From: Bacteroidota bacterium
GTDB lineage: Bacteria > Bacteroidota > Bacteroidia > Palsa-948
Assembly (NCBI GenBank): GCA_023251675.1
Contig: JAHEYJ010000001.1
Span: forward strand, 1,671-65,670
Direction: 5' to 3'
DNA length: 64,000 nucleotides
Numbering within the stretch: the stretch's first letter is position 1; each line of letters begins with the position of its first letter. A program made the position numbers and the translations under genes. The notes under the pieces are model-generated. The model saw nothing but the letters and a program-made list of their open reading frames with translations. It searched no databases and had not been told where the DNA came from. Of the stretch, positions 8,075 through 28,973 are shown in pieces.

Positions 8075-10042
8075 CTATTTGTTCTGAGCGCCGGCTGCAA
8101 TTTCTAATTCGTTAATTGTATTTTCTTCAACAGCAATTCCCTTTTCTTTCGCAGTGAGCAGATCCTGTAACGCTTCGGCATATTTACCCATCCCTTTATA
8201 AGCAAGCGAACGGTTGGTGTAAGCGCCGTAATTATCGGGTTTCAGTTCAAGGGATCTTGTAAAATCATTCACCGCTTCCTGGTATTTACCGCTCATGCTT
8301 AAAATAATTCCGCGGTTGTTGTACGCCTGTCCGTTATCCGAAGCAAACTCAATGGCTTTATTGATATCACTGAGCGCTTCCGGAAGATGATCGCTTTTTC
8401 CGTATGCTTCGGAACGGGCATAATAGCCTTCCCCGCTTTTGGGCTGCAGCTCAATGATCTTTGTAAAATCTTTTATCGCGTTTTCAAAATCATTTCTCTG
8501 AACATACATGGTGCCGCGGCTGAGGTAATTGGTATAATCATCGGGATGAAGTCGTATCTCTTCGGAGAAGGATCGGATGGCTTCATCGGTTTGCTTCAGG
8601 CGCTGGTGTACCAAACCTTTGTTGCGCCACGCTTTCGGATATTTTGGTTTCAGTTCTACCAATGAAATAAAATCTTTCAGCGCTTCTTCGTTACGGCTTG
8701 AATCCGTAAGAACAGCACCGCGGTTGGTATATAAAATGGCTGCTTTGTATCCGTTGTCAATGGCATCGGTATAAAGCCGAATGCTGTCGTGCCACACCTT
8801 TGTCCGCTGAAAGGTCAGGTAACAGAAAAACACCAGGTAAACAGCGGCAGCGGCAGTTGCAGTTTTATTTGTTATAAAAGGCGAAAAATAATACGCCGCA
8901 ATAAAAAATAATCCGATTGATGGAATGTATGTGTAGCGGTCGGCATACAAGGCATCACCGATGGGAAGGAGCTGAAGAACAAGAACAATGGTGATGAGAA
9001 AAAAGGCCGTTCCGAATAAGACCACTTTCGAATCACGAAAATATTTCCAAATGAGGAACGCAATAGCAAGCAGAACGGCCGGACTTATATAAACCCAGAC
9101 CGTATTGATCTTATCGTTGGTTTCCGGGTAAGGATAAAAGCAAGAAAGATTAATCGGAAGAATAATCTTGTGCAGATACGTCATCAAAGCATAGCAGGAA
9201 AAAAGGATCCGTTCGTAAAAAGGAAAATACTGGAACGTCTGCATGGCGCCGGCTTTCCCCTGGACTTTAATGGCAAGAATTCCGAAGGCAACGGCAAGGA
9301 CGAAGAAAGGGATTTTTTCCAAGATGGTTTTCTTTGTGAGCTTCCGGTTCAACAGAAAATCGACAGCAAAAAAAGTTACAGGAAGCACAACCGCCTGTGC
9401 TTTTGAAAGAAGCGCAAACAGAAAAAGTAAAAGAATCACTCCGACGCGGGCAAGGGACAGTGAACTTTTTTCTTCTTTCAGCGAAGGAGTAGAGATGTAA
9501 ACATACAGCCCCCATAAAAAGAAAAATCCATAGAGCACATCCTTTCGTTCCGCGATCCACACAACGGATTCCACGTGAAGCGGATGAATCCCGAACAACA
9601 AAGCGGTGAGAAATGCGGCCCACCCCCAACCCCTCCCCAAGGGAGGGGGGATTAATTTCTGCACGATCAAAAAAACCAGAAGGGTATTCAGTAAGTGCAA
9701 CAATAAATTTACAAGATGATAGCCGAAAGGATTTAGAGCAAAAAATTTATAATCCAGCATGTAGGAGAACATGGTAAGCGGCTGGTAGTTGCCTACAAAC
9801 TGTTCGGAGAAAATAGTTTTCAGGTTCTCGGCATTGATCGCTTTGATCACCGGATTTTCCAGTACGTACTGTGTATCGTCAAGGTTAACGAATTTGTTTT
9901 GAAGAGAAGGGAAGAAAACAAGAAAGGTAATTGCAAGAACAGCGGGAAGAAAATATTTTTCATATCCTGAAATAAATTCTATTTCAGGTTGGAGTTGTTT
10001 CGAAATGACTTTGGCTTTCTGCTTTGGCTTTGCCATGAGCAA
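8075..10042 (-). CDS. multi-pass membrane protein with C-terminal TPR repeats (TMTC/DUF1736-like)
   Basis: 655 aa. Many N-terminal TM helices. Motif ALLFGIHPLHVESVVWIAERKDVL typical of the DUF1736 loop. Tandem TPRs at the C-terminus. Contains an in-frame GC hairpin encoding PPPLGRGWGW. Confidence 0.7.
   Translation of the reverse strand: MLMAKPKQKAKVISKQLQPEIEFISGYEKYFLPAVLAITFLVFFPSLQNKFVNLDDTQYVLENPVIKAINAENLKTIFSEQFVGNYQPLTMFSYMLDYKFFALNPFGYHLVNLLLHLLNTLLVFLIVQKLIPPPLGRGWGWAAFLTALLFGIHPLHVESVVWIAERKDVLYGFFFLWGLYVYISTPSLKEEKSSLSLARVGVILLLFLFALLSKAQAVVLPVTFFAVDFLLNRKLTKKTILEKIPFFVLAVAFGILAIKVQGKAGAMQTFQYFPFYERILFSCYALMTYLHKIILPINLSCFYPYPETNDKINTVWVYISPAVLLAIAFLIWKYFRDSKVVLFGTAFFLITIVLVLQLLPIGDALYADRYTYIPSIGLFFIAAYYFSPFITNKTATAAAAVYLVFFCYLTFQRTKVWHDSIRLYTDAIDNGYKAAILYTNRGAVLTDSSRNEEALKDFISLVELKPKYPKAWRNKGLVHQRLKQTDEAIRSFSEEIRLHPDDYTNYLSRGTMYVQRNDFENAIKDFTKIIELQPKSGEGYYARSEAYGKSDHLPEALSDINKAIEFASDNGQAYNNRGIILSMSGKYQEAVNDFTRSLELKPDNYGAYTNRSLAYKGMGKYAEALQDLLTAKEKGIAVEENTINELEIAAGAQNK
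9632..9650. repeat. GC-rich perfect hairpin (CCCCTCCC-caa-GGGAGGGG) embedded in-frame in a CDS; encodes PLGRG
   Basis: 8-bp perfect stem seen directly. Same family as the hairpins at 27924 and 28327. Confidence 0.7.
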
Positions 10043-21794: not shown

Positions 21795-21878
21795 TTTTAA
21801 AAATAATTGAGCATTAGGATCGAAGCGAAAGTAATAATAATTTTAGTAACTTCACATCCTCAAAAATCATTTTTACCA

Positions 21879-24398
21879 ATGAAAAAATTAGCTATAGTTT
21901 TTGCCTGTTTCCTGTTGCCGGTTTATTATTCTTTTGCACAGGATTTACAAAAGAATAAAGACGGGGCGCATAGTGCCGAAATACTCTGCACGGCCATCAG
22001 CAGCGATGGAGCCTGGATCATTACAGGGGGTGCTGACAAGCGCGCCTACTTATGGGATGCAAAATCAGGAGAGAAAATAAAAGCCTTTGCTTTTTCTGCT
22101 CCCGTAACTGCTTCCGCTTTTAGTTCCAGCGGAAAAACTTTTGCTGTGGGAACGGCGGATGGCAAGCTCAATATCTTTGATACAAAAGAACAAAAACTTA
22201 AAAAGATCCTTAAAGAACATACGCTGGATATTACCTCAATTGCATTCAACCCGATCAACGATAACATTATCACCTCTTCAAAAGACAATACGGCAAGAGT
22301 ATGGGATGGCGTAGGAAGTTCTTCGTTATTCACGCTGAAAGATCATACTAAACCGGTGAACGGTGCGGTGTACAGTCCCGACGGAAAAACCATCGCGACC
22401 GCATCTGCTGATAACACGATTAAAATCTGGGATGCGGCAACCGGCCAATTGAAATCATCTCTGGATGCAGGCTCAAAAGAAGTCACTGCCATCACGTGGA
22501 GCCCCGATGGAAAATACCTCGCTACCGGCGGAAGCAGCGGAACCGTAGTGATCTGGGAAATGCCCGCCGGAACAAAGTTTGCCGAAACCAATTTCAAATC
22601 ACAGGTGAATTCGCTGGCCATCAGCTCGGATGTTCAATACCTTGCCTGCGGAGGCGCTGAAAAGAAAATCTCCATCTGGAACATTGAAACAAAAGCGCTG
22701 ACCAAAGAATTCGCTGCGCACGATGGCGATGTGACCGGAGTTGCGTTCTCGGATAATGGAAAATTATTTATTTCCGTGAGCAAAGATATGAGTTTAAAAT
22801 TTTGGGATGTTACCAACCTGAAAATCGGAAAGAAAAAATTCATGAAAGATGCCGGTGAACCCAAACTTTCAACGCTCAATGTGGTCATGAAAGAAGACAA
22901 CCGCAACGGCATCATTGAAAATCCCGAGAAGCCATCGATCAATTTCATCCTGAAAAATACAGGAAAGGGACAGGCCTATAATGTGGTTGCCAAAGTTTCT
23001 ATCGACGCCACCATTGTAGGATTGAAGTTTGAAAAAGAAGTGGTGATCGGAAACCTGGAAGCGGATAAATATACCAACGTTGTCCTTCCCATATATACGG
23101 ACTCCACCCTTGAATCCATGGGCGGAACGTTCACGGTAGATATTGCAGATGCAAACGGGTTTACCGCCCCCCAGTTCAAAATAAGTTTCCAGACACGCGG
23201 CGGTGTAAGTTACAGTTACGTAATGATCACCAGCCATGCCTACAGTTCAGCAACCGGAAAAGCGGAAGTGGGAGCGCCCATCACCCTGAAGCTGAAACTG
23301 AAAAATACATCCAGCGGTGAAGCAAGAAACGTAAAAATAAATTACGTCTTTCCTCCTAACGTGATGGCGGTGAATAAACTTTCTGAAACCGTTCCGGTGA
23401 TCGCGCCGGGGGAAGAAAAGGAACTCAGCGTTGAATTTTATGCAAGCAAGGAATACACAAAGCCTAAAATAAATATCGGGCTGAACCTGGAAGGCGCTTA
23501 CACGAACGCCAATGACCTGGTATTTGATGTGAAGATGAACGAGGCGCTGCCGACCACCGATATTGCCATTGCGCAAAACACCGCTCCGGTGGAGTTGCCC
23601 GAAACCCCTCTTTACCGCGGAAGCGGAGACCCGCTCAAGGGACTGAATGTCTCCAAAGCAAAAGATATGGTGATCGGAAAATATTACGCGCTCATCATCG
23701 GCGTAAATAAATATTCCGGAACCTGGCCTCCGCTTCAGAATGCGGTGAACGATGCAAAAGCCATTGAAGCCATGCTGAAATCAAAATACAAATTCGATGA
23801 TTTCAAAACCTTGTATGATGAACAGGCATCGCGGGTGGCCATCATTGACGCGTTTGACGTCCTGGCGAAAAATGCAAAACCGGAAGACAATGTTTTCATT
23901 TATTATTCCGGGCACGGTGAGTTCAAGCAGGAGCTGAACAAGGGTTTCTGGGTTCCGCAGGATGCCAAAACCAATTCCGTAGCCAATTATATTTCCAATG
24001 CGGACCTGCAGGCCTTCCTGGGCGGAATAAAATCCAAACATACGTTACTGGTTGCCGATGCCTGCTTCAGCGGCGATATTTTCAGAGGCAGCACAGTAAC
24101 AGTTCCTTTTGAAGAATCAGAAAAATATTACAAAGAAGTGCACGGCCTTTCTTCCCGGCAGGCAATGACTTCAGGCGGTATAGAGCCCGTTATGGACGGA
24201 GGAAAGGACGGCCACTCGGTTTTCGCGTATTACTTTCTGAAAACACTCGGCGATAACGAAAATAAATTCTTTGATGCCGGGCAGTTGTACAACAAAATAA
24301 AAATCCCGGTTATCAATAACTCCGAGCAAAGCCCCAAATTGGCGCCGGTAAAAAATACGGGCGACGAGGGCGGGCAGTTTATTTTCATCAAGAAATAA
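21879..24398 (+). CDS. WD40-repeat protein with C-terminal caspase (peptidase C14) domain
   Basis: Probable start at MKKLAIVFACFLLP (signal peptide). Multiple WD40 units. Caspase dyad region YYSGHGEF … LLVADACFSG. Confidence 0.8.
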   Translation: MKKLAIVFACFLLPVYYSFAQDLQKNKDGAHSAEILCTAISSDGAWIITGGADKRAYLWDAKSGEKIKAFAFSAPVTASAFSSSGKTFAVGTADGKLNIFDTKEQKLKKILKEHTLDITSIAFNPINDNIITSSKDNTARVWDGVGSSSLFTLKDHTKPVNGAVYSPDGKTIATASADNTIKIWDAATGQLKSSLDAGSKEVTAITWSPDGKYLATGGSSGTVVIWEMPAGTKFAETNFKSQVNSLAISSDVQYLACGGAEKKISIWNIETKALTKEFAAHDGDVTGVAFSDNGKLFISVSKDMSLKFWDVTNLKIGKKKFMKDAGEPKLSTLNVVMKEDNRNGIIENPEKPSINFILKNTGKGQAYNVVAKVSIDATIVGLKFEKEVVIGNLEADKYTNVVLPIYTDSTLESMGGTFTVDIADANGFTAPQFKISFQTRGGVSYSYVMITSHAYSSATGKAEVGAPITLKLKLKNTSSGEARNVKINYVFPPNVMAVNKLSETVPVIAPGEEKELSVEFYASKEYTKPKINIGLNLEGAYTNANDLVFDVKMNEALPTTDIAIAQNTAPVELPETPLYRGSGDPLKGLNVSKAKDMVIGKYYALIIGVNKYSGTWPPLQNAVNDAKAIEAMLKSKYKFDDFKTLYDEQASRVAIIDAFDVLAKNAKPEDNVFIYYSGHGEFKQELNKGFWVPQDAKTNSVANYISNADLQAFLGGIKSKHTLLVADACFSGDIFRGSTVTVPFEESEKYYKEVHGLSSRQAMTSGGIEPVMDGGKDGHSVFAYYFLKTLGDNENKFFDAGQLYNKIKIPVINNSEQSPKLAPVKNTGDEGGQFIFIKK

Positions 24399-25124: not shown

Positions 25125-28100
25125 ATGAGGACGAATTACGAATGCAAATATTTTCTTGCACTAACTTCTTTTTTCCTTATTTCCCTTTTTCCGTATTCCT
25201 CTTCGGCACAGCGCAATAATTTTCAATCCTATTCTCTCGACCAGGGACTTCCGCAGGCCACCATTTATTGCATCATTCAGGATAACCGCGGCTACTTGTG
25301 GCTTGGTACCGATGGAGGTGGGCTTTGCCGTTTTGACGGGATCCATTTCAAAACCTATGGAAAAAGTGATGGTTTCAACGGGCAAAATATCCGGTCGTTG
25401 CTCCAGGACAGCAAAGGAAGGATATGGGCCGGAACAAAAGATGAAGGCATTGTGGTTTATGACGGCAATAAATTTGTTTCTATAGGAAAGAAAAATGGTT
25501 TGGCGGGCAGCGCCATCCTTTGCCTGCACGAAGATAAAGACGGAACGGTGTGGGCAGGCACGGATGATGGCGGCGTAAACAAGATCACGCCTGTTTTTAA
25601 AGGGAAAAGTTCCGGTCAAACGGTAGTTTCGGCAGTGAAAGATTCCTTTGTAGTAGAAGTTTTTGACGAGAACAAAGGGCTCAGCAGCAATTCCGTATTA
25701 GACATTCACCAGGATAAGGACGGGCATATCTGGCTGGCTACTTTTGGAGGAATAAATGTATTAACGCCCGGCAAAGATTCTGTTTCTATTGATCATTTAC
25801 GCGGCGGAAGAGAAATTCCCAGCGACCAGATCACTTCTGTTACCGAAGAAAAAAATGGAGCTTTGTGGTTTGGCACGTACGATGGAGGCATTTTCCGAAT
25901 CGCTCCCAAAAACGATACTAAAAATTTTAAACTGGATATTCTTTCCCGAAAAGTTACCTCTTTCAGCCAGGAAAACGGGTTCAACGCAAAAACCATCTGG
26001 CGGATTTTTACTTCCGATAATAATGAGCTCTGGTTTGCTTCTGTTGAAGACGGGCTTATCCGCTGTAGAAATACAGCCGCTTCCGATACCGGGAAAAAAG
26101 TATTCGAAAAATATACAGATAAGGAAGGACTGCCGTGCAACCAGATGCTGTGCATCTTTGAAGACAAAGAAAAAAATATCTGGATCGGAACCAACGGTGG
26201 GGGGCTTTGCAAGTTCAACGGAGATATGTTTGCTCATTATTCTGAAAAAGACGGGTTGCCTAGTAACAGCGTTCAGGGAATTGACATGGATTCATCCGGA
26301 ACGCTCTGGTTCGGGACCAGCGGCGGCGGATTGGTTAAAATGGATCTGCGATCGGGCGCACCGGTTTGCAATAACTTTTCGATAAAAGATGGTTTATCGG
26401 GAAACACCATTCTTTCAGTATCTGCCGGGAAGGTCATTCATAATCAGAACCTATGGTCCGCGGTTTCAAACGCCGGTATTTCAAAATACGATGGCAAAAC
26501 CTTTCTCAATTTTTCGGAGCGTGACGGCTTGCTGAACAACAGCGTGTACAGCATTTTCGTTGATAAGAACGGGATCGTTTGGATCGGCAGCAAGGATGGC
26601 ATCAGCCGTTTCGACGGATCGAAATTCCTGAACATCACCATGGAGACCATGAAAATTCCGGATAAAGATGTGAATGCCATCATCCAGGATGAAAAAGGAA
26701 ATCTATGGTTCGGTACCGGCGGCGGACTGGCCCGGTATTCAGGAGACGGAGCCATTACCACGTTTGATGAAGCGGAAGGATTGATGCACAAGGAAATAAA
26801 AGCGCTTGCTGAAGATCCGTTCGGAAATATCTGGATCGGGACCAACAACGGCGGGCTTTACCGTTTCAATGTTTTTACGGATGATTCGATAAAAATAAAA
26901 CTGATCGCTGACGATAGCCTGCTGAGTTCTAATTCCGTTCGCGCCATTATTTTCCTGGATGAAAAAACCACCGGCAACAAGGGAAAAGAAATGGTGGTAG
27001 GGACAGATAAGGGAATTGATAAAATAATTTTTGACGACAAAGGAAAGATCCTGAAGATCAGGAATTATAATGCTACCGACGGATTCATCGGCGTGGAGTG
27101 CAATGACAATGCCATGTACCGCGATGACCAGGGAAATATCTGGATCGGAACGGTGAAAGGGCTGACACGGTTTAATCCCTCAGCGGAAGTGCAGAATACG
27201 AACGCTCCGCAGGTTCATATTACCGATATAAAACTTTTCTTCAAAGATGTGGATTGGAGCTCGCGTGCTGATTCTGTTCTTCCCTGGTTTTCGCTTCCCA
27301 CTTCTTTGCAGCTTTCGTATACGGATAACCACCTGACGTTTGACTATGCCGCCATTTCACTTGGCAATTCACAAAAAATAAAATACCGTTACATGCTGGA
27401 AGGCGCAGAAGAAGAATGGTCGCCCGACCGGAAGGAAACATCGGTAACTTTTTCAGGGCTTTCTCCCGGCAAATACACTTTCAAGGTGATCGCGTCAGGA
27501 GCCAACGGAGTTTGGAATACGCAGCCTGCGGAATTTTATTTCACGATTAACCCTCCCTGGTACCGTTCCATGTTGGCTTACATTATTTACGCGATTGTTT
27601 TAATGGGCGGAACCTATTCCTATTCCAAGATCCGGGAAAGGGCGCTCATCCACGAAAAAAAGATCCTTGAAGAAAAAGTAGTGGAACGCACCGCCGAAGT
27701 GGTGAAACAGAAAGAAGAACTCGAACAGCAAAAACATGTGATCGAGGAAAAGAACAAAGACATCACCGACAGCATCAACTACGCGGAAAAGATCCAGCGT
27801 GCTATTTTGCCCGATCTTGCAAAAATTAAAAAGGCTTTGCCCCAGTCCTTTATTTTATTTGAGCCCCGCGACATTGTCAGCGGAGATTTCTTTTGGTATG
27901 TGGAAGTGAAAGCCCCACCCCGGCCCTCCCCATTGGGGAGGGGGATTGATGACCCCGACTATTTCACTGCAGATTCATCACTTTATCCTGCACTTAAGTC
28001 AAGGGCGGAAGAATTTAGGGATCATCCTACCGAAGCGGAAAATATTGCATGGGAACTTTTAAAAGGAAATAATATTGGTTTTCATATAAGGCGTCAACAC

Positions 28101-28973
28101 ATCATTGGAAAATATATAGTGGATTTTGTAAACATTAAAACAAAAACAGTTATAGAAATAGACGGCGATATTCATGATTATCAGAAAGAAGAAGATGAGC
28201 AGCGAACGAGCTGGCTGAAGAAGCATGGATTTGAAGTTATTCGTTTCAGAAACGAGGAAGTGATAGCAGCGTCAGATGGTTTTGCAGAAAAAGTAATAAA
28301 GGTATTGCAGGAACGCGAACAAAAAGTCCTCCCCATTGGGGAGGATTTAGGAGGGGCTTCTTCCATTTATCTTTTATCCGCGGCGGATTGTACGGGGCAC
28401 GGCGTTCCGGGCGCGTTCATGAGCATGATCAACACGTCGCTGCTCAACGAAGCGGTGAACCAGAAAAAAATTTACCAGCCGAACGAAATACTGGATGAAG
28501 CACGAAGAGGGATCATTACCGCGCTGAAGCAGACGGGCGCTTCCGGCGAACAAAAGGACGGAATGGATGTAAGTATCATTTCGCTTGAGATGAACGGCGA
28601 CACGTGCAAACTTCAATACGCCGGAGCCAACAACTCGCTCTATATAATAAGGAAGGGCGAAACATCGGAACTGGAAGAAATAGATCCCGACCCGATGCCC
28701 GTTGCCATCAGCGACCGTACGGGCGAGTTCACCAACAATGTGATCGACCTTCAGAAGGGCGACACCGTTTATATTTTCACCGACGGTTATGCCGATCAGT
28801 TCGGCGGGCCGAAAGGGAAAAAATTCAAGTATTCCAATTTCAAAAAACTCCTGCTTTCCATCCAGGATAAAAATATGGATGAACAGCACGACATCCTCAA
28901 GAAAACGATGGACGACTGGAAAGGCAACCTCGAACAGATTGACGACATACTGGTAATGGGTGTTAGGATATAG
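25125..28973 (+). CDS. large sensor protein: signal peptide, two-component-regulator beta-propeller repeats, Y_Y_Y domain, TM, coiled coil, PP2C/SpoIIE phosphatase domain carrying an in-frame DUF559 insertion
   Basis: 1282 aa. Repeated …LWxGTxxGGLxxFDG… propeller units. SpoIIE-type C-terminus (…SGDFFWY…, ADCTGHGVPGA, C-terminal IDDILVMGVRI). The homologous paralogue on the minus strand at 58674 lacks ~145 aa between the WY and ADCTGHG motifs. Confidence 0.8.
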   Translation: MRTNYECKYFLALTSFFLISLFPYSSSAQRNNFQSYSLDQGLPQATIYCIIQDNRGYLWLGTDGGGLCRFDGIHFKTYGKSDGFNGQNIRSLLQDSKGRIWAGTKDEGIVVYDGNKFVSIGKKNGLAGSAILCLHEDKDGTVWAGTDDGGVNKITPVFKGKSSGQTVVSAVKDSFVVEVFDENKGLSSNSVLDIHQDKDGHIWLATFGGINVLTPGKDSVSIDHLRGGREIPSDQITSVTEEKNGALWFGTYDGGIFRIAPKNDTKNFKLDILSRKVTSFSQENGFNAKTIWRIFTSDNNELWFASVEDGLIRCRNTAASDTGKKVFEKYTDKEGLPCNQMLCIFEDKEKNIWIGTNGGGLCKFNGDMFAHYSEKDGLPSNSVQGIDMDSSGTLWFGTSGGGLVKMDLRSGAPVCNNFSIKDGLSGNTILSVSAGKVIHNQNLWSAVSNAGISKYDGKTFLNFSERDGLLNNSVYSIFVDKNGIVWIGSKDGISRFDGSKFLNITMETMKIPDKDVNAIIQDEKGNLWFGTGGGLARYSGDGAITTFDEAEGLMHKEIKALAEDPFGNIWIGTNNGGLYRFNVFTDDSIKIKLIADDSLLSSNSVRAIIFLDEKTTGNKGKEMVVGTDKGIDKIIFDDKGKILKIRNYNATDGFIGVECNDNAMYRDDQGNIWIGTVKGLTRFNPSAEVQNTNAPQVHITDIKLFFKDVDWSSRADSVLPWFSLPTSLQLSYTDNHLTFDYAAISLGNSQKIKYRYMLEGAEEEWSPDRKETSVTFSGLSPGKYTFKVIASGANGVWNTQPAEFYFTINPPWYRSMLAYIIYAIVLMGGTYSYSKIRERALIHEKKILEEKVVERTAEVVKQKEELEQQKHVIEEKNKDITDSINYAEKIQRAILPDLAKIKKALPQSFILFEPRDIVSGDFFWYVEVKAPPRPSPLGRGIDDPDYFTADSSLYPALKSRAEEFRDHPTEAENIAWELLKGNNIGFHIRRQHIIGKYIVDFVNIKTKTVIEIDGDIHDYQKEEDEQRTSWLKKHGFEVIRFRNEEVIAASDGFAEKVIKVLQEREQKVLPIGEDLGGASSIYLLSAADCTGHGVPGAFMSMINTSLLNEAVNQKKIYQPNEILDEARRGIITALKQTGASGEQKDGMDVSIISLEMNGDTCKLQYAGANNSLYIIRKGETSELEEIDPDPMPVAISDRTGEFTNNVIDLQKGDTVYIFTDGYADQFGGPKGKKFKYSNFKKLLLSIQDKNMDEQHDILKKTMDDWKGNLEQIDDILVMGVRI
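27924..27942. repeat. GC hairpin (left flank of the DUF559 insertion); encodes SPLGRG
   Basis: 8-bp perfect stem with a 3-nt loop. Confidence 0.7.
28327..28345. repeat. GC hairpin (right flank of the DUF559 insertion); encodes LPIGED
   Basis: 8-bp perfect stem with a 3-nt loop. Confidence 0.7.

Follow-up and report, generated by a model that had tools for sequence, protein, structure and literature searches.

By the usual view, a homing endonuclease gene can enter an essential gene only under the protection of a self-splicing intron or intein; otherwise the gene breaks. Rickettsia palindromic elements (RPEs), which Ogata and colleagues reportedly described in 2000, are palindromic repeats that lie in-frame in functional genes. 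Here we describe, by computational analysis, an element that shares features with both: a DUF559 nuclease cassette, bounded by palindromic repeats and carried in-frame by a sensor-phosphatase gene, in a 64,000-nucleotide stretch of DNA from a Bacteroidota bacterium (contig JAHEYJ010000001.1; hereafter the window). We are highly confident that it is a mobile, selfish, in-frame cassette, and put the probability of the full explanation—a selfish, horizontally mobile, non-splicing nuclease cassette that spreads by homing-like copying—at about 0.65.

The closest described enzymes belong to the Vsr-like 'EDxHD' family of homing endonucleases, which includes I-Bth0305I and whose members are known from group I introns, from fractured genes between split-intein halves, in antisense orientation within inteins and as free-standing genes (Dassa et al. 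2009, PMC2677866; Taylor et al. 2011, PMC3239194). Two identical subunits make up I-Bth0305I, whose specificity is for a 14-bp pseudopalindrome (PMC3239194), and Vsr, DUF559 and the I-Bth0305I catalytic domain (3R3P) have been grouped in one clade (PMC3424549). The cassette resembles these selfish nucleases in its fold clade, in its horizontal movement and in its patchy occurrence at a given conserved site of a conserved gene, element and host trees being incongruent. However, it is read through in-frame within the host protein with no intron or intein, is bounded by 31-bp palindromic terminal inverted repeats, lacks the large N-terminal DNA-binding region of I-Bth0305I, and carries E-x-D-G-D-x-H-D instead of the contiguous EDxHD. 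The usual vehicle of a homing gene (an intron, an intein, or a free-standing gene with its own signals) is thus missing here, while about 16% of the relatives are free-standing. Inteins, too, are selfish and lie in-frame at the conserved motifs of proteins that are essential (aminoacyl-tRNA synthetases, helicases, metabolic enzymes), being translated with their host and re-invading the same site in different lineages; in contrast to them, the cassette has neither a Hint splicing domain nor junction nucleophiles, and its product evidently stays in the mature protein. We found no published description of in-frame, non-splicing, repeat-bounded DUF559 cassettes in housekeeping genes, full-text coverage being incomplete and an earlier report possible.

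A DUF559 nuclease in the phosphatase loop of a membrane sensor

The host is a membrane sensor of 1282 amino acids (aa) whose open reading frame (ORF) continues without interruption through the insert. The features of the gene, of the cassette and of a paralogue in the same window are as follows.

25125..28973 (+): host gene for the 1282-aa membrane sensor (ORF list, Pfam, synteny); domains by Pfam are nine Reg_prop repeats (beta-propeller), Y_Y_Y and a C-terminal SpoIIE/PP2C domain at aa 1082-1281; the protein also has a transmembrane/coiled-coil region
About 27912-28357 (+): the cassette, ~446 bp, delimited by its terminal repeats with ends accurate to +/-2 nt
27912-27942 (+): left terminal inverted repeat with three arms, GCCCCACCCC-GG-CCCTCCCC-ATT-GGGGAGGG, made up of an outer arm GCCCCACCCC (27912-27921), a GG spacer and an inner palindrome CCCTCCCC-ATT-GGGGAGGG (27924-27942)
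27943..27992 (+): N-terminal extension of the nuclease (..DPDYFTADSSLYPALKSRAEEFR), 5′ of the Pfam DUF559 core
27993..28307 (+): DUF559 (Vsr-like PD-(D/E)xK) nuclease core, defined by PF04480, structure matches and invariant residues
28327-28357 (+): right terminal inverted repeat with three arms, TCCTCCCC-ATT-GGGGAGGA-TTT-AGGAGGGGC, made up of an inner palindrome TCCTCCCC-ATT-GGGGAGGA (28327-28345), a TTT spacer and an outer arm AGGAGGGGC (28349-28357)
28358..28973 (+): host PP2C domain 3′ of the insert (..SSIYLLSAADCTGHG...), in-frame and intact (Pfam SpoIIE, AlphaFold2)
58674..60941 (-): paralogous TPR-SpoIIE gene, with the equivalent, unoccupied loop at 59217..59366

PF04480 (DUF559) matched aa 957-1061 of the sensor (E=9.3e-29, 99.9 bits, cutoff 20.6) and the excised insert alone (E=3e-30, 104.7 bits, same cutoff), whereas NCBIfam PRK09767 scored 69.6 bits, under its equivalog cutoff of 218. 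The original prediction, made from the letters of this stretch, had placed a complete DUF559 module in-frame within the phosphatase gene and counted ~145 extra residues relative to the paralogue. Both statements are borne out: the frame stays open, and ~148 extra residues lie between two PP2C beta-strands where the paralogue has a loop of 27 residues without DUF559. We rejected a reading of that 27-residue loop as a decayed cassette remnant, the palindrome being absent there. The two perfect 8-bp hairpins that had been taken as the junctions are present exactly as described, at 27924-27942 and 28327-28345; they turn out to be the inner part of ~31-bp repeats, and the span of 27910-28350 given for the insert is accordingly revised to about 27912-28357. 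Modelling, too, agrees with a surface location. In the AlphaFold2 (AF2) model, the PP2C core has a predicted local distance difference test score (pLDDT) >90, and the insert exits the beta-hairpin loop between strands 82-89 (SGDFFWYV) and 240-250 (IYLLSAADC; fragment numbering), the repeat-encoded residues at its ends being disordered.

The insert itself was modelled with a pLDDT of 82.7. Its sole solved sequence relative is 3HRL (phmmer, E=3e-16), and Foldseek likewise returned 3HRL (template modelling score 0.88) as well as 3R3P (0.81), with Vsr (1VSR) lower in the list. The model also matches apicomplexan and ciliate mitoribosomal proteins (9g6k/9i05/6z1p; Foldseek probability about 1.0), consistent with a related nuclease-like fold in those proteins. 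Across 24 cassettes from different hosts, 16 residues are invariant in the alignment (T40, E43, W47, R60, Q62, I69, D71, F72, E82, D84, G85, H88, D95, R98, R111 and N114); among them, D71, E82, D84, H88 and D95 are the acidic and His positions of a putative catalytic site. The N-terminal extension, in which AF2 predicts a helix at 25-37, is kept across the family as a Y-x-T-x-D...L...R segment with Y17, T19, L28 and R36 nearly invariant. The ratio of nonsynonymous to synonymous divergence (dN/dS, Nei-Gojobori) was 0.06-0.26 in most comparable cassette pairs and 0.41 in one, so the nuclease is under purifying selection (dN/dS about 0.1), and it may be catalytically active. In the host frame the insert has no ATG codon, only TTG (codons 7 and 131) and GTG (codons 69 and 116); without an ATG of its own and translated within the host, the nuclease would depend entirely on the host gene for its expression. 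Between the two insert-bearing orthologues, those of the window and of locus L001, host dN/dS is 0.06-0.07 both 5′ and 3′ of the insert, and we infer that the sensor-phosphatase remains functional with the insert in place.

Comparison with homologues argues that the cassette is an insertion and not an ancient fusion. Among the best 120 of 7,591 matches to the whole sensor protein, just two contain PF04480: the query itself (P0001) and P0002, which is 71% identical. Fifteen orthologues at 60-79% identity (P0003-P0017) lack the domain and instead have a hypervariable loop of 9-45 residues between SGDFFWY.E. and LLAAADCTGHG. Synteny is shared, with a WD40-caspase gene 5′ and an M42 peptidase gene 3′ of the sensor in the window, in L020 (P0003) and in L111 (P0013); syntenic orthologues at 70-80% identity thus supply the empty sites that an insertion would lead one to expect. 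Identities of host and insert are, moreover, inverted. P0002 is 77.5% identical to the window sensor in the host PP2C domain and 47.6% in the insert, whereas P0139 is 44.8% identical in the host domain and 80.1% in the insert, and L004 (Flavobacteriales) 53.7% and 70.1%. It follows that the SpoIIE loop has been taken independently by different cassette lineages and that near-identical cassettes lodge in distant SpoIIE genes; at least 12 distinct SpoIIE-family proteins have DUF559 at this position.

The same loop holds other material as well. Short inserts in P0009 and P0013, which might be deletion derivatives of a cassette, are encoded by DNA with only degenerate C-rich and G-rich arms. Three orthologues (P0004, P0005 and P0012) carry further short in-frame inserts there, for example VIGNQSSVIGKQTPNTDHRLPN, with TPNSKLQ.../GTWNLELGTWNL-type repeats, and a second loop ~80 residues downstream is also used; this suggests that other small-repeat families also use these permissive PP2C loops.

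Palindromic ends, solo units and a family of in-frame cassettes

Most of the sequences closest to the 145-aa insert form interior parts of large proteins. Two word-index matches proved to be DUF559 joined to fragments of leucyl-tRNA synthetase (LeuRS) and of acetyl-CoA synthetase (ACS), and a scan of GTDB species genomes yielded 16 loci, all 16 embedded in-frame: seven in LeuRS, between GKSEG...F.I and VFTTRPDT; six in ACS, between NVFQY and YWCTADVGWITGHSY; and one each in SpoIIE (at the same site), iPGM and tRNA-guanine transglycosylase (TGT). Their host organisms are Bacteroidia, Flavobacteriales and Patescibacteria, the last comprising Uhrbacteria, Zambryskibacteria and one unclassified member on contigs of 44-90 kb. 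A HMMER search of a library of 50%-identity representatives gave 17,544 DUF559 matches at E<=1e-3, and in 52 of the best 150 representatives the domain was internal (>=60 residues on either side); a metagenome scan added 530 relatives, of which 80 loci were kept. A scan of viral contigs returned only distant relatives (28-44% identity over the best segment, some of <50 residues), and a phage origin was rejected.

We assembled a comparative set of 100 related loci from genomes and metagenomes, mostly metagenome-assembled genomes or metagenome contigs, and called a cassette embedded if an open frame of >=60 aa continued on both sides. By this definition 69 of the 100 are embedded, while 8 lie near or at a C-terminus, 3 are N-terminal or split, 16 are free-standing and 4 are cut by contig ends. 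In all 69 embedded loci, the host frame is preserved and the insert free of stops. Flank clustering and Pfam identified as hosts LeuRS (two sites), MetRS, IleRS, MetH (two sites), ACS (two sites), RecG, TGT, iPGM, DegT, CinA, BirA, HsdM, a Type ISP restriction enzyme, a MeaB-B12 protein, GcpE, guanylate kinase (Gmk), an epimerase and SpoIIE. As LeuRS, MetRS and IleRS are essential, their insert-bearing forms are presumably active. The insertion points typically lie 0-10 residues 5′ of the most conserved motif of the domain (VFTTRPDT, ATVKGDVHDIGKN, WCTADVGWITGHSY, DCTGHG, VWFDAPIGY), and for 49 of the 69 embedded cassettes the nearest cassette neighbour sits in the same host gene (shuffles: mean 8, maximum 19), a clustering that is partly confounded by vertical inheritance. 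Hairpin-flanked DUF559 copies, a search for which had been suggested in the rest of the genome, occur in other genomes and metagenomes, in-frame in >20 other host genes and also free-standing. Beyond what had been foreseen, this large family occurs repeatedly at the same conserved housekeeping sites and resembles inteins or homing genes more than random transposition.

A few loci carry defects or are doubtfully placed. At L002 (contig_3955, 5273-7690), where the cassette occupies the second ACS site, two frameshifts, of which one lies well away from the cassette, break the ACS gene into three ORFs, and L003 (716) is a LeuRS fragment with a single in-frame stop; the L002 frameshifts are typical of long-read assemblies, and the defects at both loci could mark true pseudogenes or stem from faulty assembly. 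For L006, an identity of 96% to a Bacteroidetes locus makes mis-binning probable.

Synonymous divergence (dS) in close pairs of loci was lower in the cassette than in the flanking host sequence:

L006/L008: cassette dS 0.26, host-flank dS 0.59-0.66
L053/L056: cassette dS 0.20, host-flank dS 0.84-1.16
L018/L019: cassette dS 0.40, host-flank dS 0.67-0.88
L012/L013: cassette dS 0.22, host-flank dS 0.32-0.58

The cassettes are thus younger than the divergence of their host genes, and this is a sign of recent horizontal spread into the same site.

To define the repeat anatomy, each left end was aligned with the reverse complement of its right end in 52 elements. The family repeat is ~31 bp long and has three arms: an outer arm, (G/A)CC(C/T)C..CCC(C/T), a spacer of 2-3 nt, and an inner perfect palindrome in which a pyrimidine C-rich arm of 7-9 nt is followed by a 3-nt loop and a complementary G-rich arm. 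The repeats end in (A)GCCCC, and within many copies (e.g., L092, L090, L057 and L085) the two ends are near-identical over 35-40 bp. Stems and loops vary between cassettes and agree within one, left and right co-varying as inverted repeats; the right loop is mostly the reverse complement of the left (aaa/ttt, gaa/ttc, caa/ttg, gtg/cac, cttg/caag), a rule from which the att/att loops of the window differ by one central mismatch. Perfect C-arm/G-arm hairpins of >=6 bp occur at 68 of 100 left ends and 66 of 100 right ends, against 0.014 per 150 nt of flanking DNA (1.4%) and none inside cassettes, a 47-fold enrichment at the ends. In free-standing copies the hairpins fall outside the ORF, 3′ of the stop codon or 5′ of the start codon. 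At the window locus, the left repeat encodes APPRPSPLGRG and the right one VLPIGEDLGGA, and the right-end sequence KVLP[ILNF]GEDLGG recurs in cassettes of LeuRS, ACS, MetH and other hosts. Moreover, the 17-mer CCTCCCCATTGGGGAGG forms a perfect direct repeat (27925-27941 and 28328-28344) that is translated in two different frames; a search for it with <=3 mismatches gave 5 matches, where 0.04 would be expected by chance.

Folding energy alone is unexceptional for this composition (single-sequence z = -0.45 for the left and -2.05 for the right repeat), since shuffled C-runs and G-runs fold equally well; the case for the hairpins rests therefore on comparative data and not on thermodynamics. Counting covariation on hairpins that had been selected for pairing was judged circular, and we instead used a synonymous-site test on 39 cassettes chosen by the protein motif [LFSH]P.G[EGK] alone, with no selection for pairing. 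Codons in the motif strongly favoured the pairing base relative to the flanking host ORFs: 82% vs 21% for Pro CCC, 97% vs 13% for Gly GGG, 72% vs 25% for Glu GAG, and 49% vs 10% for Leu CTC. These codon frequencies indicate that the palindromes are maintained at the nucleotide level, beyond linker coding, by selection or by templated correction.

Single three-arm units also occur without a nuclease, and the window contains one:

9617-9650 (-): solo three-arm unit, CCCCCCTCCC-TT-GGGGAGGGG-TT-GGGGGTGGGCC, in-frame in ORF 8075..10042

It has the architecture of the cassette's right terminal repeat, reads IPPPLGRGWGW and occupies a short loop between transmembrane helices of a GT39/TPR membrane glycosyltransferase-like protein. 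Relative to 40 homologues it is an insertion, absent from all 40, and it contains the sole other C-arm/G-arm hairpin of the window (9630-9648). In the gene for P0002 (L001), four solo units accompany the cassette (L001 4675, 4837, 7684 and 7776), the one at 7776 (TTCCCCCCTTTGGGGGGTGGGGGTGGC) being nearly equal to the right repeat of the same gene's cassette (L001 7440); a further in-frame solo unit lies at L020 3040. Extra units, two or three together, are stacked at one cassette end in L005 (3006-3053), L011 (3428-3485), L025 and P0179. In P0179 (aa ~300-336), a KVLPIGEDLGG unit of the window type adjoins a cassette of a different lineage and repeat type, which suggests successive invasions and turnover at the SpoIIE site. 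The solo units behave as the suspected analogy with RPEs would have it, sitting in-frame in genes likewise.

A second site in the sensor, after GG.NKIT, is occupied by a solo unit in P0002 (L001 4675-4710) and P0009 (L110 1451-1490), with the sequences PLSSGRGAGGEV and PLSYSGGDAGRGL. At this site the window has a longer segment without a palindrome (25590-25637, +; PVFKGKSSGQTVVSAV), which may be a decayed solo unit, and P0003 has no insert.

Elsewhere in the window, tblastn found no further DUF559 copies. Membership of a defence system was rejected, PADLOC having given only a marginal DpdF match. The gene directly 5′ of the sensor (21807-24398, +) encodes 863 aa, with a WD40 propeller at the N-terminal end and a caspase domain (Peptidase_C14) at the C-terminal end. 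Three tandem genes near the start of the window share near-identical 5′ regions (173-516, 2363-2706 and 4763-4865; 300 nt at 95%, spacing 2190 nt). Of their ORFs (635-1984, 2825-4246 and 5205-7586, +), the first has a Colicin_E5 ribonuclease toxin domain at its end, the C-terminus of the second differs and gave no Pfam match, and the third carries a CHU_C type IX secretion signal; the arrangement looks like a polymorphic-toxin cassette array.

Possible routes of spread and rival explanations

In the explanation that we favour, the cassette consists of a 31-bp three-arm GC palindromic repeat, a DUF559/Vsr-like nuclease ORF without ATG, and an inverted copy of the repeat. Lodged in-frame in a PP2C surface beta-hairpin loop, it would be transcribed with the host gene and translated into the host protein, with repeat-encoded Pro/Gly stretches as disordered linkers, and spliced at neither the RNA nor the protein level. 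The nuclease would trigger copying into insert-free alleles of the same conserved site, by a break or nick and subsequent recombinational repair for which the conserved flanking motifs provide homology, and occasional jumps would carry the cassette to new genes. The palindromic repeats would act in cis as DNA sites, plausibly as binding or cleavage sites of a dimeric nuclease, and decay or one-ended events would leave single repeat units in-frame. The clustering of cassettes by site, their insertion next to motifs, their sporadic distribution among orthologues and the low cassette dS together favour nuclease-triggered copying into empty alleles. We infer the homing route and which DNA the nuclease cuts; we give a homing-like route about even odds and consider repeat-directed transposition possible but doubtful as the route.

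Several points weigh against homing-like copying as we have drawn it. Cassettes at the same site are on average only a little more alike than cassettes at different sites (57% vs 51% identity), some close relatives (70-72% identity) sit in different host genes, and the SpoIIE site has been taken by at least two lineages that are just 48-51% identical. Classical homing needs no terminal repeats, and under it the recognition site should be lost on insertion, whereas the palindromes at both ends are intact here. A module of ~110-145 aa without an extra DNA-binding domain is also small for recognising >20 different long host sites, and as the window host is a membrane-anchored sensor, its nuclease would be membrane-tethered. 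Template-switch mutation can maintain perfect palindromes just as selection can. Finally, we detected no target-site duplication, that is, no direct repeat flanking the element ends, and no exact empty/filled junction can be defined in a loop that is hypervariable and whose nearest empty alleles are 79-85% identical. The palindromic repeats, the solo units, the close relatives in different genes and the weak separation by site are unexplained by classical homing; they fit a dimeric nuclease that reads its own palindromic ends. We raise the tentative idea, somewhat short of even odds, that cassettes and solo palindromes form an unrecognised class of mobile element, in which the palindromic end-units would be the substrate of the element's own minimal Vsr-like PD-(D/E)xK nuclease, through a transposition or homing chemistry outside the DDE, HUH, serine and tyrosine enzymes and the classical homing endonucleases, and which would survive in-frame and unspliced in essential genes of Bacteroidota and Patescibacteria.

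The most serious competitor of homing-like copying is a transposon directed by its repeats. In this scenario the DUF559 nuclease, alone or with host factors, would recognise the repeats, excise or copy the unit and insert it more or less anywhere; purifying selection would leave only in-frame insertions in permissive loops, and the solos would be non-autonomous or one-ended products mobilised in trans, as in MITEs (miniature transposable elements with inverted repeats) or REPIN/RAYT systems. Much of the anatomy would fit: conserved 31-bp inverted repeats at both ends of embedded and free-standing copies alike, in-frame solo units (with the near identity of L001 7776 to the right repeat at L001 7440), units stacked by cassettes (L005, L011, L025, P0179), close relatives in different host genes, one site held by distant lineages, and a kinship with I-Bth0305I-type enzymes, which act as dimers on pseudopalindromes. 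What makes this scenario unlikely is that random insertion followed by selection hardly explains sites directly 5′ of the most conserved motifs and leaves the 49 of 69 nearest neighbours at a shared host site unexplained, that, where related hosts share a site, a cassette dS lower than the host dS agrees with copying from allele to allele, and that no target-site duplication was seen. Moreover, we know of no strand-transfer activity of a lone Vsr-like nuclease.

Removal of the cassette after transcription or translation by a novel mechanism, such as repeat-paired cleavage and religation of the mRNA or protein splicing of a non-Hint kind, would leave mature host proteins free of the insert. It would account for insertion beside active-site motifs of essential enzymes, the classic self-splicing pattern, and the two repeats, being complementary to each other across about 19-31 nt, could join the junctions in RNA; one report describes Patescibacteria as rich in unusual introns (10.1101/2025.07.03.662931). 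We nevertheless hold such removal improbable: RNA splicing would not need a preserved host frame and a stop-free insert in 69 embedded loci, 148 aa made up of the predicted DUF559 fold and two disordered linkers would leave no room for a Hint fold, the junctions have no conserved Cys/Ser/Thr or His-Asn, Rfam gave no match, and free-standing copies bear the same repeats without any need for splicing. An intein proper was rejected, as the original prediction had anticipated from the lack of splicing motifs: Pfam found no intein or Hint family in the sensor or the embedded host proteins, nucleophiles are absent from the junctions, and the junction residues vary (A, V, I, F, E). Group I or group II introns and known RNA elements were likewise rejected, an Rfam E-value scan of 27500-28800 having given two chance-level matches only and the frame being kept in 69 of 69 embedded loci. 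Domestication or ancient fusion, with the nuclease a functional part of the sensor-phosphatase that was inherited vertically and lost in most relatives, had been offered as the alternative from the start. An intact ORF, purifying selection on the insert and the at least 12 SpoIIE-family proteins with DUF559 at this position would suit it, yet 118 of the 120 best-matching homologues lack the insert, host and insert identities are inverted, insert-bearing SpoIIE hosts are not each other's closest relatives, and the same cassette with its repeats recurs in >20 unrelated enzymes, so that a fusion is very improbable. Entry of a hairpin-bounded element into a gene that kept its ORF open, the preferred suggestion at that time, is supported instead by the empty homologues, the incongruent trees and the hairpin-flanked relatives, transposition and homing both being possible; PF04480 similarity is present, and orthologues do not all carry the segment. 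Least probable of all is that the hairpins are a by-product of Pro/Gly linker coding (CCN/GGN) or chance and the insert an ordinary, single domain insertion or a chimera of the assembly. Codons for Pro and Gly complement one another in any case and the single-sequence folding z-scores are weak, but the third positions of codons hold the pairing base far more often than background, the 17-mer is read in two frames, hairpins persist outside ORFs and are enriched 47-fold at cassette ends, and the architecture recurs in about 100 independent assemblies.

Relation to other repeat elements and implications

Among short repeats, the in-frame palindromic RPEs of Rickettsia (PMC3733652) are the nearest counterpart of the solo units, which alone show the RPE-like trait of a short palindromic repeat in-frame in functional genes and, like RPEs, are tolerated in surface loops. 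RPEs differ in being 100-150 bp long and encoding no enzyme, whereas here the full unit encodes a conserved nuclease and solos measure about 31-34 bp; the host phyla differ as well, and without sequence homology the resemblance is one of behaviour and not of membership. REP/REPIN-RAYT and IS200/IS605 systems share the arrangement of an enzyme gene between two inverted short hairpin repeats that are also dispersed alone. Their enzyme is, however, a Y1 HUH transposase and not a PD-(D/E)xK nuclease (PF04480), and REPs are extragenic, whereas the cassette repeats are intragenic and in-frame and carry no GTAG or CGTC tag. With insertion sequences and MITEs, the family has in common terminal inverted repeats and the coexistence of an autonomous coding form with short non-coding derivatives; it differs from them in lacking a DDE, serine or tyrosine transposase and a detectable target-site duplication, and in a coding region that has no ATG start and depends on in-frame read-through. 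Set against these systems, we regard the cassette as a homing-endonuclease-type selfish element with a new vehicle.

The family suggests a third strategy for entering essential genes beside introns and inteins: to stay in-frame, small and well folded, with flexible repeat-encoded linkers, the nuclease being carried as a loop domain of the host. If confirmed, this would supply the orphan family DUF559, which is very large, with a biological role and identify a source of domain insertions and of short Pro/Gly in-frame inserts in bacterial proteins. It would also open to direct experiment the question of whether palindromic ends allow a Vsr-like nuclease to mobilise DNA, may supply small palindrome-specific nucleases, and would point to natural permissive insertion sites in LeuRS, MetRS, IleRS, MetH, ACS, RecG, TGT and PP2C that could be used in protein engineering. 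Should the cassettes and solo palindromes indeed form an unrecognised class, that class would explain why several proteins of these metagenome-assembled genomes contain short in-frame inserts rich in Pro and Gly.

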